Shown piece after piece: positions 1-4,462 of a DNA stretch of 4,462 bases. The first letter of the stretch is position 1. Each line of letters starts with the position of its first letter. Under the pieces are notes generated by a model that was not told the DNA's origin, made no database searches, and was given only the letters and a program-made list of their open reading frames with translations. A program made the position numbers and the translations under genes. Source of the stretch: a virus (lineage: Duplodnaviria; Heunggongvirae; Uroviricota; Caudoviricetes); IMG/VR virus record IMGVR_UViG_2582580966_000016, one strand, 5' to 3'.

Positions 1-316
1 TATAATAAACTTACTTTTTTATCATTTTTCCACTTTAACAACATTTTGCTCCACTTTTCCACGACCAAACAACTTGAAATCTGGTTAAAATAACACGCAA
101 CACTATTCTTCTTCCTTGAGTCCGCCCGGAACTCGAAAAACAAACCGAGTTAAAGCCATTTTTCACAAAATCGATTTTGGGTCTCACCAAAGTTACGGGG
201 TTGCATACGCATTCGTTTATTTTCGAACGTGTACATACAAATATGCACAAAAATAATCAAAATTATTTTCTGAGATGCATTATGATATGAACACCAATTT
301 CGTATAGAGTCTCACT

Positions 317-907
317 ATGTCTCGAATTTTTGCTTACTGTCGGATATCAACGCTGGATCAGACCACCGAAAATCAACGCCGGGAAATCGAAAGTGCAGGT
401 TTTAAAATCAAACCTCAGCAAATAATCGAAGAACACATTAGCGGCTCAGCAGCAACCAGTGAGCGTCCTGGTTTTAACCGGTTGCTTGCTCGCCTGAAAT
501 GTGGTGATCAATTGATTGTGACAAAACTGGATCGCCTTGGTTGTAATGCAATGGATATCAGGAAAACAGTGGAACAACTGACCGAAACAGGTATCAGAGT
601 GCATTGCTTAGCATTGGGGGGCATTGACCTGACCAGTCCAACAGGAAAAATGATGATGCACGTAATTTCAGCAGTCGCTGAATTTGAACGAGACCTTTTA
701 CTTGAACGCACTCATTCCGGGATAGTAAGAGCCCGCGGCGCAGGGAAACGTTTTGGTCGACCACCTGTGTTAAATGAAGAACAGAAACAGGTGGTATTCG
801 AACGAATTAAGTCAGGTGTAAGTATAAGTGCCATTGCCCGGGAATTCAAAACCTCGCGGCAAACCATTTTAAGAGCCAAAGCAAAACTTCAGACACCTGA
901 CATATAA
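317..907 (+). CDS. pinQ: Serine recombinase / DNA invertase of the Gin-Hin-Pin-Cin family (PinQ/PinR-like), 196 aa
   Basis: 196-aa ORF in the ORF track. N-terminal catalytic motif [12 protein letters not shown] with the active-site Ser at position 11, resolvase-type catalytic core, and C-terminal helix-turn-helix ([20 protein letters not shown]). Near-identical to my recollection of E. coli K-12 PinQ/PinR, which I cannot tell apart by eye; the symbol follows the Qin-like context (adjacent nohA-like gene). Convergent with tfa as in Rac/Qin. Confidence 0.92.
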
Positions 908-1004
908 AAAATAATCTCGGTGTGAGATGCTTTACGTCTTCCAAGCCCCCTTCCTTGCCGTAAATGGAGAGATACATCTAATTATAGAATTTATATGTTT
1001 TACC

Positions 1005-1580
1005 CTACGGCAGTGCTGGCCATTCAATATCCGGTGCAGTTGATGTATCAACACGGTTCAGCAACACCCGATACTTTTTCCAGGCTTCCAGCAACAAGGT
1101 TTCTTCCTCCGTTGCGATCTCCAGATCCACAGCATCCTGAAGCGGCGCTATATGCTCACTGGCTATCTGCATCAGGCTGTTTTTTGTTTCTTCCGCCTCC
1201 CGGATCCGGAACAGTTTTTCTGCTTCCGTATCCTTCACCCAGGCTGTGCCGTTCCACTTCTGATATTCCCCTCCCGGCGATAACCAGGTAACATTTTCCG
1301 GTAACGGACCGAGTTCAGAAATAAATAACGCGTCCCCTGATGCCACGTCATAAACCGTTTTACCCCGATGATCTTCAACGAGATGCCACGATGCCTCATC
1401 ACTGTTGAAAACAGCCACGAAGCCTGCCGGAATATCTGGCGGTGCAATATCGGTACTGTTTGCTGGCAGACCTGTATGAGGCGGAATATATGCGTCACCT
1501 TCACCAATAAATTCATTAGTTCCGGCCAGCAGATTATAAATTTTTATGGTCCGTGGTTGTTCACTCATTCTGAATGCCAT
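1005..1580 (-). CDS. tfaQ: Tail fiber assembly protein (lambda Tfa family, TfaQ/TfaR-like), 191 aa
   Basis: 191-aa ORF; N-terminus [51 protein letters not shown] matches my recollection of K-12 TfaQ/TfaR. Its ATG overlaps the stop of the upstream stf remnant (TAATG on the minus strand), the usual stf-tfa coupling arrangement. A GAGG lies about 10 nt upstream. Confidence 0.88.
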
Positions 1581-1888
1581 TACGCAAGCCTCACAATATA
1601 GTTAAATGCGATGTTTTTGACGGTGTTTTCCGCGTTACCAGCAGCGTTAACGGTGATGGTATGTCCATGTGAACCAATCGCAACGGAGTGCGTATGAGCA
1701 CCAATACCGACAGTATGTGCGTGTGCACCTGCGCTTGCAGCAGTACCCGATACAGAGTGCGTATGAGCGCCTGCAGAAGAAGTGTTAACACTGTATTTAG
1801 AATAATCAGGTGATCCACTTCCCGGAGCACCACTGGAACCACCTGAAACAAATGTCATCGAATGGGTATGTGCACCGGCTGTCCCCAT
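1580..1888 (-). pseudogene. stfQ: Side tail fiber protein, C-terminal remnant of about 100 codons (stf'), with four GAHTHS His-box repeats
   Basis: Translation [17 protein letters not shown]...[64 protein letters not shown] is glycine/HxH-rich and typical of lambdoid side tail fiber C-termini. Only the C-terminal part is present; upstream DNA in this frame changes into J-like sequence near 1880. Confidence 0.7.
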
Positions 1889-2170
1889 GCATTTACCGCC
1901 CGGACTGTCAGCCTGTAATTTCCCAGCGCCAGCTGCGTGAAGCGATATGTGGTTTCCGTCGTCCGGGCCGTGCTGACCAACCGCTCACTGCCGTCGTCCG
2001 CTGCCACGGTCAGGCGAAGCATAAAGCTCACCCCCTTCACCACCTTCGGCGTGTCCCAGCGCGCCAGCACCTGGTATTCCCCGCTGTCTGCGGTGACTTC
2101 TGCGGTCAGGTGCTGAACTGCTGGCGGCGTGACACCATTCACCGTGCCGCTCTGGTCACCGTCAAAGTGC
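1855..2170 (-). pseudogene. Internal fragment of a lambda J-like tail tip / host specificity protein (J')
   Basis: Minus-strand translation ...[91 protein letters not shown] matches my recollection of an internal segment of lambda gpJ. It diverges after AVNAWGQ (about 1880) and starts where the Nu1 homology ends (about 2170). Its frame differs from both nohA and stf' (codon phases 0, 2 and 1), so there is no in-frame fusion. Confidence 0.65.
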
Positions 2171-2684
2171 GCCCCGTTATCAGTTCATCCAGCGCGGCTG
2201 CTTTGTTCATGGCTTTGATGATATCCCGTTTCAGGAAATCAACATGTCGGTTTTCCAGTTCCGGAAAACGCCGCTGCACCGACAGGGGGATCCCGTCGAG
2301 AATACTGGCAATTTCACCTGCGATCCGCGACAGCACGAAAGTACAGAATGCGGTTTCCACCACTTCAGCGGAGTCTCTGGCATTTTTCAGTTCCTGTGCG
2401 TCGGCCTGCGCACGCGTAAGTCGATGGCGTTCGTACTCAATAGTCCCTGGCTGGAGATCTGTCTCGCTGGCCTGCCGCAGTTCTTCAACTTCCCGGCGCA
2501 GCTTTTCGTTCTCAATTTCAGCATCCCTTTCGGCATACCATTTTATAACGGCGGCAGAGTCATAAAGCACCTCATTACCCTTGCCACCGCCTCGCAGAAC
2601 GGGCATTCCCTGCTCCTGCCAGTTCTGAATGGTACGGATACTCGCACCGAAAATGTCAGCCAGCTGCTTTTTGTTGACTTTCAT
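2139..2684 (-). CDS. nohA: Terminase small subunit, lambda Nu1 homolog (NohA-like), 181 aa, with the last ~14 residues replaced at a deletion junction
   Basis: N-terminal 167 residues (MKVNKKQLADIFGASIRTIQNWQEQGMPVLRGGGKGNEVLYDSAAVIKWYAERD...) are nearly identical to my recollection of lambda gpNu1 (winged-HTH cosB-binding domain). Lambda-like RBS GTGGAATGAACAATG. C-terminus ...DELITGRTLTVTRAAR differs from lambda ...DELIPGLLSEYIEQSG, placing a junction near 2170-2184. Confidence 0.85.
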   Translation of the reverse strand: MKVNKKQLADIFGASIRTIQNWQEQGMPVLRGGGKGNEVLYDSAAVIKWYAERDAEIENEKLRREVEELRQASETDLQPGTIEYERHRLTRAQADAQELKNARDSAEVVETAFCTFVLSRIAGEIASILDGIPLSVQRRFPELENRHVDFLKRDIIKAMNKAAALDELITGRTLTVTRAAR

Positions 2685-2704
2685 TGTTCATTCCACGGCC
2701 CAAA

Positions 2705-2861
2705 ACAGAGAAAGGAAACGACAGAGGCCCAAAAGTTCGTTTTCAGCACCTGTCGCTTCCTTTCTTTTCAGGGGGTATTTTAAATAAAAACATTAAGTTA
2801 CGACGAAGAAGAACGGAAACGCCTTAAACCGGAAAATTTTCATAAATAGCGAAAACCCGCG
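2705..2861 (-). other. cosB-like region (terminase small-subunit binding sites) between cosN and the nohA start
   Basis: The reverse complement closely matches my recollection of the lambda left-end sequence ...CGCGGGTTTTCGCTATTTATGAAAATTTTCCGGTTTAAGGCGTTTCCGTTCTTCTTCGTCATAACTTAATGTTTTTATTTAAAATACCC..., and contains inverted R-site-like repeats AAAGGAAACGACAG (2711-2724) and CTGTCGCTTCCTTT (2749-2762). Confidence 0.65.
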
Positions 2862-2873
2862 AGGTCGCCGCCC
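2862..2873 (-). other. cosN: lambda-type 12-nt cohesive end (GGGCGGCGACCT on the minus strand)
   Basis: Plus strand 2862-2873 is AGGTCGCCGCCC, the reverse complement of the lambda cohesive end GGGCGGCGACCT, flanked by lambda-like GTTACGGGG and CGCGGGTTTTCGC context. It sits about 180 bp upstream of the Nu1-like gene, as in lambda. Confidence 0.82.
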
Positions 2874-2908
2874 CGTAACCGGTCGGATCGCCGGAAAGGA
2901 CCCACGAA

Positions 2909-2925
2909 ATGATAATGATTATCAT
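2909..2925. promoter_or_regulatory. Perfect 17-bp palindrome ATGATAATGATTATCAT; core TGATAATnATTATCA equals the 7-1-7 Fur-box motif
   Basis: Read directly: positions 2910-2924 are TGATAATGATTATCA, a perfect 7-1-7 inverted repeat that extends to an 8-1-8 palindrome at 2909-2925. It lies 36 bp from cosN and about 155 bp upstream of the RHH ORF. Assignment as a Fur site is inference from the motif match. Confidence 0.4.
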
Positions 2926-2985
2926 CTATATAAGGTTTATCACAACATGTGTGTACGCCATCAAACCACGAGAAATAATCAATTA

Positions 2986-3018
2986 TGACGCAGGTATCGT
3001 ATTAATTGATCTGCGTCA
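2986..3018. promoter_or_regulatory. Inverted repeat TGACGCAG-N17-CTGCGTCA upstream of the RHH ORF; candidate operator
   Basis: Perfect 8-bp arms at 2986-2993 and 3011-3018 with an AT-rich 17-bp spacer, 62 bp upstream of the ATG at 3080. Function is inferred only. Confidence 0.3.
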
Positions 3019-3079
3019 AATTAACGTAAAAGCAACTTCAGATAATACAAATCAGCAACACTGAATATGGGAAAACATT

Positions 3080-3280
3080 ATGTCATCAAAGAACAGAACC
3101 CGCAGAACAACAACCCGCAACATCCGATTTCCAAACCAGATGATTGAACAAATTAACATCGCTCTTGATCTGAAAGGTTCAGGAAACTTTTCAGCGTGGG
3201 TTATTGAAGCCTGCAGGAGAAGGCTGGCAACAGATGCAACGCATCTGCGCCCGGCCAGCATGAAAAATAACGAGAAATGA
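3080..3280 (+). CDS. Small ribbon-helix-helix-like DNA-binding protein, 66 aa (cos-proximal lambdoid ORF, probably YnfO/YlcI family)
   Basis: 66-aa ORF with a basic N-terminus (SKNRTRRTTTR), a predicted beta-strand NIRFP, then two helices (NQMIEQINIALDLKG / NFSAWVIEACRRRL), which is the RHH (Arc/MetJ-like) pattern. Weak SD GGGA 8 nt upstream. Position and orientation (divergent from nohA across cos) match my recollection of ynfO/ylcI in K-12 Qin/DLP12, but I do not recall those sequences well enough to assign the symbol. Confidence 0.75.
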   Translation: MSSKNRTRRTTTRNIRFPNQMIEQINIALDLKGSGNFSAWVIEACRRRLATDATHLRPASMKNNEK

Positions 3281-3411
3281 ACGTTCGGTTACAGGAGCAG
3301 GTACCCACTGTCCTCCAACAATATTTCATCTTCATATCCGACGGAACAAGACTTACCCTGCCGGGATGTACAGAATAACAACAGAGTGATAATTAATTTC
3401 TGATGAAATAA

Positions 3412-3744
3412 TCAGGGTGCAGAAGGACTAAAGATAAACGTTTTCTTCACGCCTTTACACGGCCTGTCCTTCTCAAATCGCCATTTTGCCATCGCCTTTA
3501 CAACCTGCTCATCAAACAAATGGTGCGGCTCTGAACGGATAAACTCAATTCGGGTGACAGTACCATCAGCACCAATATCAAACTTCACATCAACCCGTCC
3601 CTTTATATAATTTGCCGCTGCATAGGCCGGATATTGTGGTAATGCCTTAACCAACTGTCGGGGCATATCTGTTTTATGTTGCGTACAGCCCATAACCAGA
3701 GAAGACAACAAAATAATTAACGGAAGGTTTCTTTTCATTTTCAT
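3412..3744 (-). CDS. Predicted outer-membrane lipoprotein whose mature part is a TonB C-terminal domain (TonB_C-like), about 110-aa precursor
   Basis: Signal peptide MKRNLPLIILLSSLVMGC with lipobox LVMG-C and Thr at +2 (no Lol avoidance Asp, so predicted outer-membrane sorting). Mature region PQYPAYAAANYIKGRVDVKFDIGADGTVTRIEFIRSEPHHLFDEQVVKAMAKWRFEKDRP aligns by eye to E. coli TonB residues ~160-230 (YP...[49 protein letters not shown]). Start is ambiguous: GTG 3753, ATG 3744 or ATG 3738; 3744 chosen. Confidence 0.8.
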   Translation of the reverse strand: MKMKRNLPLIILLSSLVMGCTQHKTDMPRQLVKALPQYPAYAAANYIKGRVDVKFDIGADGTVTRIEFIRSEPHHLFDEQVVKAMAKWRFEKDRPCKGVKKTFIFSPSAP

Positions 3745-3758
3745 TCCCGGCACAGATA

Positions 3759-3776
3759 AGAATAAGTCTTATTCTA
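3759..3776 (-). promoter_or_regulatory. 17-bp perfect palindrome AGAATAAGtCTTATTCT overlapping a putative -10 (TAGAAT on the minus strand) directly upstream of the TonB_C lipoprotein gene
   Basis: Positions 3759-3775 form a perfect 8-1-8 palindrome. Minus-strand TAGAAT is at 3771-3776, a possible -35 TTGATG at 3796-3801 (19-bp spacer, suboptimal). The start codon is about 20-30 nt downstream. Operator/promoter role is inferred. Confidence 0.35.
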
Positions 3777-3983
3777 ACAATGCCACCCTGTCGGTCATCA
3801 ATCCTCTGCTTAATGGCAACGACAATTATCCGACTTAAATCACAAATCAGACACATGACATAACAGAGCTTGCGAGGTAACACATCGTCCGGTTTCTTCC
3901 ACCATCGCACCGGACCAGCGACCATGAGGGGACAACGCCGCGCTCCGTTAACACGGTAAACCCCGGTGTGTATCGTTTTTGAT

Positions 3984-4048
3984 TATCCCCGCACACTCGC
4001 GCAGAGGAGTCTCCCGGTCGGGCTGCGGTCTCTGTTAATGCGGGGATA
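3984..4048. repeat. Perfect 10-bp inverted repeat TATCCCCGCA / TGCGGGGATA enclosing a 45-nt GC-rich segment; candidate stem-loop or protein-binding element
   Basis: Arms at 3984-3993 and 4039-4048 are exact reverse complements. The enclosed segment has further self-complementarity (CAGAG 4002-4006 with CTCTG 4030-4034; GGAGtCTCC 4006-4014). It lies in a 329-bp ORF-poor gap (3754-4082) between two minus-strand genes. Confidence 0.35.
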
Positions 4049-4082
4049 CGGCGACAATACCGCGCATGGTTAATAAGGTCGC

Positions 4083-4307
4083 TCAACACACTGGCTGTAA
4101 TGCAGCGGATACCATGCGGCATTTAGCGGCATTCATCGTACACTCAACGGTTAGCTCTTCATTCGTGGCATTCACCTGAAAGGTCCGGGAGTGTAATTGC
4201 GTACATTTACCACTGAACGAACCTTCAACAAGAACACGACCACGCTGCAAAATACGGAACGGAATTGTTCCCTGAAAAGGCTTTACGGTTACCAGTAATT
4301 TCTTCAT
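4083..4307 (-). CDS. Hypothetical 74-aa protein, unrecognised, encoded directly downstream of Rz/Rz1 in the late-operon orientation
   Basis: ATG at 4307-4305 preceded by GGAG with 5-nt spacing (tccGGAGaatgcATG); the ORF-track start at 4325 is a TTG 18 nt upstream. Codon usage looks enterobacterial (CTG, CGT, GGT, ACC). No signal peptide; four Cys (34, 54, 61, 74). Translation MKKLLVTVKPFQGTIPFRILQRGRVLVEGSFSGKCTQLHSRTFQVNATNEELTVECTMNAAKCRMVSAALQPVC. Begins 23 nt after the Rz stop. Confidence 0.6.
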   Translation of the reverse strand: MKKLLVTVKPFQGTIPFRILQRGRVLVEGSFSGKCTQLHSRTFQVNATNEELTVECTMNAAKCRMVSAALQPVC

Positions 4308-4330
4308 GCATTCTCCGGATAACAAAAATA

Positions 4331-4462
4331 CTAGTTAATACACTGAGTGCGGATATATTCCTGCGCCCCTTCCAGTTGCTTCTGCATTGTCATCAACCGC
4401 TCTCTGAGGGTGAAATAATCCCGTTCAGCGGTGTCTGCCAGTCGGGGGCCGGTTGCATTATC
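4331..4462 (-). CDS. Rz: Rz (i-spanin, inner-membrane spanin subunit), C-terminal 43 codons; gene continues beyond the window end
   Basis: Not in the ORF track because no start lies in the window. Minus-strand frame open from the window edge to TAG at 4333-4331; translation DNATGPRLADTAERDYFTLRERLMTMQKQLEGAQEYIRTQCIN closely matches my recollection of the lambda Rz C-terminus (...SPRLADTAERDYFTLRERLITMQKQLEGTQKYINEQCR). Confidence 0.85.
   Translation of the reverse strand, partial: DNATGPRLADTAERDYFTLRERLMTMQKQLEGAQEYIRTQCIN
4393..4461 (-). CDS. Rz1: Rz1 (o-spanin, outer-membrane lipoprotein spanin subunit), C-terminal 22 codons, embedded in the +1 frame of Rz
   Basis: Second minus-strand frame translates IMQPAPDWQTPLNGIISPSESG then TGA (4395-4393), matching my recollection of the lambda Rz1 C-terminus (...AWIMQPPPDWQTPLNGIISPSERG). 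Embedded out-of-frame within Rz as in lambda. Confidence 0.8.
   Translation of the reverse strand: MMQPAPDWQTPLNGIISPSESG

Follow-up and report, generated by a model that had tools for sequence, protein, structure and literature searches.

Two cargo slots flank a conserved non-coding element between Rz and cos of lambdoid prophages

Results

Gene content of the interval between Rz and cos

The window, by which we mean the whole 4,462-nt stretch analysed here (IMG/VR record IMGVR_UViG_2582580966_000016, Caudoviricetes), carries its late genes on the minus strand. Our subject is the interval between the lysis gene Rz and the cohesive-end site cos, which, as we hold with fair confidence, is the tail of the lysis segment of the late operon in a Qin-type defective lambdoid prophage. 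Two cargo genes, orf74 and a gene for a lipoprotein with a TonB_C domain, lie in it on either side of a conserved non-coding element (EL). Read along the late strand, the features are:

4083–4307, minus strand: orf74, 74 aa (80 aa if read from the upstream TTG at 4325)
3888–4067, minus (late) strand: EL, the conserved non-coding element of ~180 nt, core of the 329-nt gap and fixed anchor between the cargo slots
3984–4048, minus strand: the 5′ hairpin of EL (helices P2–P4), the best-supported part of the structure model
4039–4048 with 3984–3993: helix P2 of EL, 10 bp, enclosing P3 (5 bp) and the P4 tip (CCC/GGG)
3771–3798, minus strand: promoter-like site before the TonB_C gene (ATGACC, 16-nt spacer, TG-extended TAGAAT; 9/12 consensus matches)
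3412–3738, minus strand: gene of the TonB_C lipoprotein; the RefSeq ATG gives 108 aa, and further possible starts lie at 3744 and 3753

An earlier reading of the letters alone (the original prediction) had placed a 74-aa open reading frame (ORF) and a TonB_C lipoprotein gene here on the late-gene strand, which the ORF list and Pfam confirmed, and the gap between them is exactly the 329 bp that it gave (3754–4082). Rz, a small YlcI/YnfO ORF and cos flank the interval as it had stated; the YlcI/YnfO ORF, which it called ribbon-helix-helix (RHH), lies on the opposite (+) strand. It was also right that the content differs from that of lambda (bor, p78, p79) and of the K-12 prophage DLP12 (bor, ybcV/DUF1398, ybcW, ylcI).

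For neither cargo protein is a function described in Pfam, PHROGs, NCBIfam, PADLOC, the PDB or the full-text literature searched. The defence models of PADLOC-DB 2.0 gave no match better than E 0.02 for any of the three proteins (orf74, TonB_C, YlcI/YnfO), and the literature searched yielded no account of orf74, of a TonB_C lipoprotein in a prophage or of a conserved element following Rz. Both genes are widespread in prophages of pathogenic E. coli. The cargo itself is routine, two more accessory genes without a described role in a known variable region, and the segment that had been treated as a spacer is the more interesting feature.

A conserved element separates two cargo slots

Among 5,426 complete E. 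coli genomes, 1,915 gave a partial match to the cargo (3381–4330) and 92 matched at least 80% of its length. RefSeq lists the series in relatives as lysis protein, hypothetical protein, TonB family protein and YlcI/YnfO family protein. The two halves also occur apart. The TonB_C module (3381–4067) is found without orf74 in O157:H7 86-24, in O103, O111 and O145 strains, in JLK-2012 and Lys8385Vzw and in phages encoding Shiga toxin (Stx) 1a, and the orf74 module (3888–4330) is found without TonB_C in O157:H7 and Stx2 phages. They overlap solely in 3888–4067, which is EL. Strain HS13-1 has this segment by itself, immediately behind Rz, and K-12 DLP12 has part of it between bor and ybcV.

A blastn search with 3860–4090 detected EL in 398 phage records at 76–98% identity, covering lambda-like, Stx1, Stx2a/c/d, Shigella and Salmonella phages. 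The lambda copy lies at 46,866–47,033 (L161 1467–1634), in the unannotated intergenic region between bor and p78; neither an annotation nor an Rfam family nor a paper was found for it. In every annotated example EL is located downstream of the lysis cassette, after Rz, bor, an antirepressor gene (ant) or orf74, and it precedes differing terminase genes (Nu1, HNH plus terminase, DUF1441 and the terminase of Stx1 phages of the Traversvirus type). Its edges are sharp in alignments (5′ ATGCGC..., 3′ ...GGAAGAAACNGGA), and beyond them we counted at least five different contexts upstream and at least seven downstream. EL carries GATGGTGG or GGTGGTGG, each one mismatch from Chi.

The original prediction had proposed surveying the slot across prophages and aligning it with lambda and DLP12. 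Both were carried out and define the conserved flanks and the variable cargo. The survey comprised 131 EL-carrying loci, namely the window, fetched loci and IMG/VR contigs. All 131 have the same order: Rz, then nothing, orf74, bor or ant, then EL, then TonB_C or nothing, then ynfO or nothing, and finally a terminase of at least three types; bor and ynfO sit on the opposite strand. TonB_C is present in 26 loci, orf74 in 20, bor in 18 and ynfO in 61, and most combinations of slot contents were observed. As the order is invariant and most combinations are seen, EL separates two cargo slots that assort independently, and an architecture of modules with slots on either side of a fixed EL is very probably the right description of this region.

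A covariance model of the EL hairpin was also run on 80 lambda-type Rz loci picked regardless of EL. It matched 43 of them, in each case on the Rz strand and 24 to ~600 nt past the end of Rz. A scan of contigs from one genome per species with the EL pattern gave 30 matches, by estimate about the number expected by chance, and the sole plausible one came from Escherichia sp.; in that exact pattern form EL appears to be rare outside Escherichia.

The element is non-coding and constrained

EL is non-coding and constrained. Of 58 distinct copies, 32 are interrupted by stops in each of the three frames and 26 leave one frame open across EL, as does the window. Lengths differ by non-multiples of three (164, 167, 172, 181 and 182 nt), and variability is equal across the codon phases (0.360, 0.372 and 0.359). 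The Jukes-Cantor distance of EL is 0.19–0.20 where the adjacent Rz has a synonymous divergence (dS) of 0.76–1.14 and a non-synonymous divergence (dN) of 0.35–0.42 (1,475 locus pairs), meaning that EL evolves ~4–6 times slower than the synonymous sites of Rz.

EL was not recognised as any known RNA. Scanning the whole window against Rfam 15 gave no match with E ≤ 1 in the interval; with the 329-nt gap alone the best matches were mir-1421 (E 1.3) and Twister-P5 (E 4.6), both far under their gathering scores, and no tRNA or tmRNA was found in EL. We also considered the small RNAs (sRNAs) AgvB/AsxR and EcOnc of enterohaemorrhagic E. coli prophages (PMC4104026). AgvB and AsxR lie after PR′, are in Rfam (RF02702, RF02703) and gave no match, and were rejected. 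Of the 55 EcOnc sites one cluster was mapped, EcOnc05/08/21 of Sp4 (1,179,806–1,180,101); it lies between tRNA genes and ECs_1088 and not at Rz. The Pas sRNAs were likewise set aside: the synteny passages of their description place them near RusA/TerB/DUF1627, antiterminator Q/LpxR and a sialate esterase, and these passages do not describe the Rz-to-cos interval (bioRxiv 10.64898/2026.05.13.724894).

Evidence for an RNA structure

We modelled EL with seven helices, P1–P7. The original prediction had described the gap as structured. For the whole 329 nt this did not hold (z = −1.40 on the late strand, −0.16 on the other), and it did for the internal 72-nt hairpin, whose fold energy has a z of −2.24 in the window and lies between −1.9 and −3.2 in four further variants. 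P2 is part of the minimum free energy (MFE) fold of five variants (the window, lambda, Lambda_4B5, the Stx1-phage variant and a 9-nt-deletion variant).

In a MAFFT alignment of the 58 copies, 96.9% of the cells assigned to helices are paired, versus 37–62% when the partners are slid; across all alignments tried the figures are 96–97% (95.8% in the one fitted to the model) versus 36–78%. The same MAFFT alignment holds 23 cells changed on both sides, versus 8.2 in shuffles (0/500). When 49 copies were aligned with the model, 7 of 18 pairs were changed on both sides (shuffles 2.8 ± 1.2, 0/500) and 21 further pair types were seen versus 16 (0/500 shuffles); leaving out one doubtful row (E = 0.64), 5 pairs were changed on both sides.

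Single variants illustrate these changes. One P2 pair occurs as C-G, U-G, G-C and U-A. P2 reads CCCGCA/UGCGGG in the window and CCCGGA/UCCGGG in lambda, a swap of C-G to G-C, and Stx1 and DLP12 have the G.G intermediate. In L340 (3483–3554, plus strand) P2 is kept through two U-A replacements around an unrelated interior, and L354 has U-A at the base of P3. A variant with a 9-nt deletion has lost the P4 tip, and its MFE fold still forms P2 and P3. In a shorter family (L186 5674–5743, L198 6582–6651) the P4 tip CCC/GGG is replaced by UACC/GGUA. Loops vary more than stems (entropy 0.42 vs 0.25). Counted by sequence cells, 150 stem transitions give G-U on the late strand and 18 give C-A, a bias that points weakly to the late strand as the functional one.

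Some further observations concern the same variants. The basal helix of lambda is perfectly compensated relative to that of the window. L340 is a minimal, A+T-rich EL variant located 24 nt past Rz and ahead of a convergent ynfO; it has the basal helix and the AUUAAC motif only, and its interior contains a direct repeat. A weak second match (E 0.64) with the same helix variant was seen in L166 (6912–6975, plus strand), on the strand opposite the main copy and ~4.7 kb away from it. A helix between the 5′ end of EL (CGCGGTA) and positions 110–116 was rejected, as position 7 varies freely without a compensating change.

orf74 in the upstream slot

orf74 starts 23 nt past the Rz stop, with a GGAG 5 nt ahead of its ATG. 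As this gap leaves no room for a promoter and the gene has its own Shine-Dalgarno sequence, orf74 is most simply read from the late transcript. We found 66 homologues, in E. coli and Salmonella only, at 56–100% identity. Their length is constant, the N-terminal 55 residues are conserved and indels are in frame. The protein matches PHROG 2571, of unknown function; no signal peptide was predicted, and Pfam, NCBIfam and PADLOC gave no match. AlphaFold2 predicts an all-beta sandwich with a predicted local distance difference test (pLDDT) score of 90.2, and comparison of this model with the PDB and BFVD gave no significant relative (best E 0.2 and 0.1). orf74 is a real, intact gene, whose place in the upstream slot is elsewhere taken by bor or ant or left empty, and its product is predicted to be a late, cytoplasmic all-beta protein.

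The TonB_C lipoprotein gene in the downstream slot

Read from the GTG at 3753, the TonB_C gene encodes 113 aa (3412–3753). The domain matches PF03544 with E 1.4e-14 (54.7 bits, cut-off 24.6) and TIGR01352 with 54.6 bits (cut-off 27.1), and aligns with residues 153–231 of E. coli TonB in PDB entries 1u07, 2gsk and 2grx (E ~1e-16). It is 39% identical to the TonB C-terminal domain, with the YP motif and the beta3 region present, and past its signal peptide the protein is essentially this domain alone. Models of full-length TonB (the NCBIfam TonB equivalogs and PRK10819) scored at best 74.2 bits against a cut-off of 315, at profile positions ~152–240 only. By its sequence, the protein is not a TonB energy transducer.

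The predicted lipobox is LVMG|C with Thr at +2, and the signal in the window is MKRNLPLIILLSSLVMG|C; full-length homologues keep a lipobox of the form LVMGC, LAVGC or LSVGC. Homologues were found in E. coli only and fall into two sequence types ~72% identical to each other. The gene is intact, and with dN/dS at 0.13 over a dS of ~1.4 it is clearly under purifying selection. Its G+C content is 0.41–0.47, versus 0.55–0.59 in EL and 0.49–0.51 over orf74. A 17-nt palindrome (AGAATAAGtCTTATTCT, 3759–3775) overlaps the −10 of the promoter-like site and may be an operator. A Fur box at this site was considered and dropped, with ~12/19 consensus matches by eye.

A second lipoprotein of this kind was seen in the closest relative of the cargo block, an E. 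coli CB6837 prophage (L001). At 14723–15151 (minus strand), beside tRNA genes and upstream of an esterase gene and the lysis genes, it encodes a 142-aa lipoprotein (LTTGC) with a TolA C-terminal domain (PF06519, 79 bits). Together with the TonB_C protein, this means that these prophages encode predicted lipid-anchored copies of the C-terminal domains of both energy transducers that phages and colicins exploit. A CP-933O gene of EDL933, described as encoding a TolA-type membrane protein, is induced 32-fold by ciprofloxacin (PMC11125564).

Neighbouring genes and prophage context

The genes and sites around the interval are:

317–907, plus strand: Pin-type invertase, at the start of the window
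2139–2684, minus strand: Nu1/nohA, small terminase subunit (Pfam Phage_Nu1, E 8e-101; named nohA in Qin-type genomes)
2862–2873, minus strand: cosN, with the 12-nt cohesive end GGGCGGCGACCT read from the sequence; the downstream conserved flank
3080–3280, plus strand: YlcI/YnfO (DUF3950) gene (PF13132), convergent with the TonB_C gene
4331–4462, minus strand: 3′ end of Rz (i-spanin), last 43 codons (Pfam Phage_lysis, E 2.4e-16, profile positions 85–125 of 126)

Rz is the upstream conserved flank, at the place where RefSeq relatives carry the label lysis protein. The DNA adjoining cosN is 87% identical to the right end of lambda (lambda 48169–48502). The YlcI/YnfO protein passes the cut-offs of Pfam (PF13132, 68.4 bits vs 25, E 4.8e-19) and NCBIfam (NF041551, 35.5 vs 30); an RHH fold is hinted at solely by a weak HicB-like PHROG match (E 0.007). 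With a dN/dS of 0.09, ynfO is an optional though frequent neighbour of cos. Lambda has a ynfO-like frame just left of cos (complement of ~48,148–48,303, L161 2749–2904; tblastn 88% over 52 aa), which is absent from the annotation of NC_001416, where p79 is a different ORF.

The invertase gene is followed by a tail-fibre assembly gene, a tail-fibre fragment and a J Ig-like fragment that abuts Nu1/nohA. At 1855–2684 (minus strand) Nu1/nohA runs straight into this J fragment (PF24421, E 6e-35), and then come the tail-fibre fragments and pin. This is a Qin-type remnant left by deletion, with no head genes and few of the tail genes remaining. A full-length match to Rfam IS009 (221 bits, gathering score 117) lies at 1039–1237 (minus strand), within the tfaQ-like tail-fibre assembly gene. 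At ~98% identity, positions 1–3214 correspond to Qin-type remnants (pinQ, tfaQ, nohA) found in many E. coli. No complete genome covered at least 80% of the whole window, and the full combination was found in none. The 98% homology to Qin-type genomes ends at ~3214, inside ynfO, and from ~3070 on the window matches prophages carrying TonB_C and orf74; the recombination joint that brought the cargo therefore lies within ynfO.

Discussion

Proposed model

On balance we favour the view that EL is a functional structured element, most likely an RNA on the late transcript. The fuller proposal is that EL is an undescribed cis-acting structured RNA of the lambdoid late operon, lambda included, with a role in processing, stability or regulation, which by virtue of its conserved sequence also serves as the recombination joint for the exchange of bor, TonB_C and orf74, and that the prophages in addition encode TonB/TolA-domain decoys. 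This we consider plausible without calling it probable.

In the explanation that we favour for the interval as a whole, it consists of three separately inherited modules: orf74, EL and the TonB_C gene. orf74 would be an additional gene behind Rz/Rz1, read from the Q-dependent late transcript, and its product a small cytoplasmic all-beta protein. EL is the fixed point common to lambda, DLP12 and the Stx phages, with cargo swapped on either side by recombination at or beside its ends, and would work as an RNA within the late transcript. Its 5′ half is predicted to fold into an extended, irregular stem-loop, in which a 10-bp basal helix is followed by a conserved internal loop (AUUAAC/GAGUG) and then by an upper stem. 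Such a shape might fit a processing or stability signal, for example a site of the RNase III type where the lysis message gives way to the morphogenesis message. Shape and position are what suggest this particular role, and we think it rather unlikely to be the right one.

The TonB_C gene, low in G+C and preceded by a promoter-like site, would be an insert of the moron-like kind. Its product, presumably lipidated and sorted to the outer membrane, would hold a TonB C-terminal domain that, lacking the membrane anchor and the ExbBD link, may occupy the TonB boxes of transporters. Periplasmic fragments of TonB reportedly inhibit transport by FhuA and FecA. Structures of the complexes show beta3 of TonB paired with the FhuA TonB box (PMC11658791). 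Because the C-terminal domain is complete, the lipobox conserved and the gene under purifying selection, and because of this pairing and the sister lipoprotein with a TolA domain, we tentatively suggest that the protein could act as a decoy for TonB boxes, tethered to the outer membrane and unenergised, and so keep out phages and colicins that depend on TonB. Phages such as T1 and phi80 and the group B colicins might be blocked in this way, while the uptake of siderophores and B12 would suffer to some extent.

A number of points weigh against these proposals. Most EL copies were gathered by a 34-nt pattern that fixes 26 of the ~180 bases, which somewhat lowers the measured divergence, and frequent recombination could uncouple the history of EL from that of Rz. 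The significant count of pairs changed on both sides comes from the model-fitted alignment, which is biased toward the structure; in MAFFT alignments not fitted to it the counts were no better than in shuffles (4, 130/500; 2, 151/500). L186 and L198 lack the whole 3′ half, and their MFE fold does not give the hairpin. The opposite strand folds about equally well thermodynamically, and when the strand test is counted by sites (17 G-U vs 9 C-A) it is not significant (p = 0.08). No intrinsic terminator was found in or after EL, and no promoter signal in it. As for the cargo, the dN/dS of orf74 is 0.40, measured at dS ≤ 0.1 only, and no fold relative of its product was found. Promoter-like sites number 4 in the region versus 3.4 expected by chance, and there is no intrinsic terminator after the TonB_C gene. 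TonB residue Q160 is not kept in TonB_C (Leu or Tyr), a TonB-box decoy would tax iron uptake, and no literature on the TonB_C protein bearing on a decoy role was found.

Alternative explanations

The alternative that we take most seriously, though we doubt it, is that EL has no function of its own and is a neutral linker patch at a mosaic joint, preserved because recombinants arising there are viable and kept similar by frequent exchange among co-resident prophages. Both ends of EL fall on mosaic boundaries, matching places number 2 per E. coli genome at the median and as many as 9, which gives ample chance of gene conversion, and the weak covariation in alignments not fitted to the structure and the equal folding of both strands fit this as well. 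Neutrality is hard to reconcile with an EL divergence that saturates near 0.2 while the adjacent Rz has dS >1 and dN 0.4. It also sits poorly with the pattern of change: stem changes are mostly G-U compatible or compensated (C-G to G-C in lambda, U-A in L340), indels remove or replace whole hairpin tips, and loops are more variable than stems. That EL instead encodes a small protein is the least credible of all the alternatives. The window does have a 91-aa ORF at 3847–4122, a frame is open in 26/58 variants, and several GenBank records annotate ORFs there, such as ORF B85 of a Stx1 phage; however, the stops in all three frames of 32/58, the lengths, the equally variable codon phases and the lack of a Pfam match all speak otherwise.

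The original prediction had seen a single moron-exchange hot spot whose interest lay in unusual cargo, with the 329-bp segment as a mere structured spacer. The interval does vary among lambda, DLP12 and the window, neither cargo protein has a known function, and TonB_C has low G+C and a promoter-like site. The hot spot stands in outline. As a single slot it does not, since two slots flank the conserved 180-nt element and orf74 and TonB_C assort independently on its two sides (131 loci). The spacer is no mere spacer, as its core is the conserved part and is present in lambda and DLP12 themselves. The cargo remains uncharacterised in that no described function was found, and yet it is not unusual, with the full block in 92 complete genomes and its halves in about a third of genomes; orf74, in addition, has no room for a promoter of its own. 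In its original form we regard this explanation as quite improbable. A further alternative is decaying junk in a dead prophage, with both ORFs as untranscribed pseudogene remnants. The prophage is indeed a Qin-type remnant, in which Nu1 is joined to part of J and the genes for head and tail have been lost, and the late operon in this host is therefore probably never productively induced. Against decay, both ORFs are full length, no frameshifts or stops were seen relative to family members, and the copies are near-identical to those in intact inducible phages (JLK-2012, Lys8385Vzw and Stx1a/Stx2 phages). The purifying selection on TonB_C and the constant length of the orf74 family from 56 to 100% identity point the same way and make decay very improbable. 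For the TonB_C protein, a role as an envelope or lysis accessory is conceivable, either as a peptidoglycan- or outer-membrane lipoprotein acting with the spanins or as a Bor-like surface or serum-resistance factor. Its best phage family, PHROG 1267 (E 7.7e-43), is labelled Rz-like spanin, and the gene adjoins the lysis cassette in the same interval as bor, another lipoprotein moron. That label was probably propagated from a GenBank annotation of an unrelated ORF, though, and these phages already have a complete Rz with Rz1 embedded. The protein has a globular TonB_C domain and is not a short proline-rich o-spanin, and its gene lies at least 0.6 kb from Rz, beyond EL. Moreover, bor uses the other slot and co-occurs with TonB_C, so that the two are not alternatives. 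We consider such a role unlikely.

Returning to EL as a functional element between two slots, its implications would reach beyond this prophage. Lambda, among the best-studied of genomes, appears to hold a constrained non-coding element of 170–180 nt after its lysis genes. If EL is a functional RNA, it bears on the processing or balance of the 25-kb late transcript and would explain why accessory genes build up at exactly that place. Decoys with TonB or TolA domains, if real, would matter for phage therapy and for how fit lysogens of Stx phages are.

Comparison with known systems

In lambda the accessory interval between Rz and cos carries bor, and bor and lom are its morons. TonB_C resembles bor in occupying the same genomic interval, where optional genes vary among similar lambdoid phages, and in being a lipoprotein gene of low G+C. 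It differs in that bor lies on the opposite strand upstream of EL and TonB_C on the late strand downstream of EL; as the two co-occur, they use different slots. The cargo had been predicted to be of the moron type. TonB_C differs from its flanks in base composition, as a moron would, and only TonB_C has a promoter-like site, whereas orf74, with no room for its own promoter, reads as a late-operon gene. As for a self-contained transcription unit, the sense of Juhala and Hendrix, TonB_C has one 9/12 promoter-like site, of a kind that is at chance frequency, and no terminator-like site after the gene.

Small phage lipoproteins that block FhuA, the kind of outcome proposed for TonB_C, are Cor of phi80, N15 and HK022 and Llp of T5 (for Llp: PMC9586334, bioRxiv 10.64898/2026.03.26.714494); they sit in the outer membrane and close a TonB-dependent receptor to other phages. 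They have no sequence relationship to TonB_C, and each binds one receptor, whereas a TonB_C domain would target the TonB box shared by all transporters of this kind. Unlike E. coli TonB, the TonB_C protein lacks the N-terminal anchor, the SHLS motif and the proline-rich spacer, implying no energising by ExbBD; it has a lipoprotein signal instead, and Gln160 is replaced.

The sRNAs AgvB and AsxR resemble EL in being non-coding and in having a conserved position beside moron slots of lambdoid prophages. They lie downstream of PR′ and Q, measure 51–60 nt, have terminators and are in Rfam, whereas EL lies after Rz and has no Rfam match. Polycistronic phage transcripts contain hairpins processed by RNase III, such as the R-sites of T7 and, in lambda, sib and the N-leader. 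EL is like these in that its predicted hairpin is long and irregular, has an asymmetric, conserved internal loop that divides an upper stem from a basal helix of ~10 bp, and sits between functional blocks of a long transcript. EL differs in also having a 3′ half (P5–P7) without a counterpart, and it is likened to them by shape and position. Finally, in HK620 conserved linker or boundary sequences are said to mark lambdoid mosaic joints. EL shares with them the character of a short conserved stretch that joins different modules in different phages; it differs in being long (180 nt), in evolving more slowly than the synonymous sites of the neighbouring gene and in showing compensatory base-pair changes.

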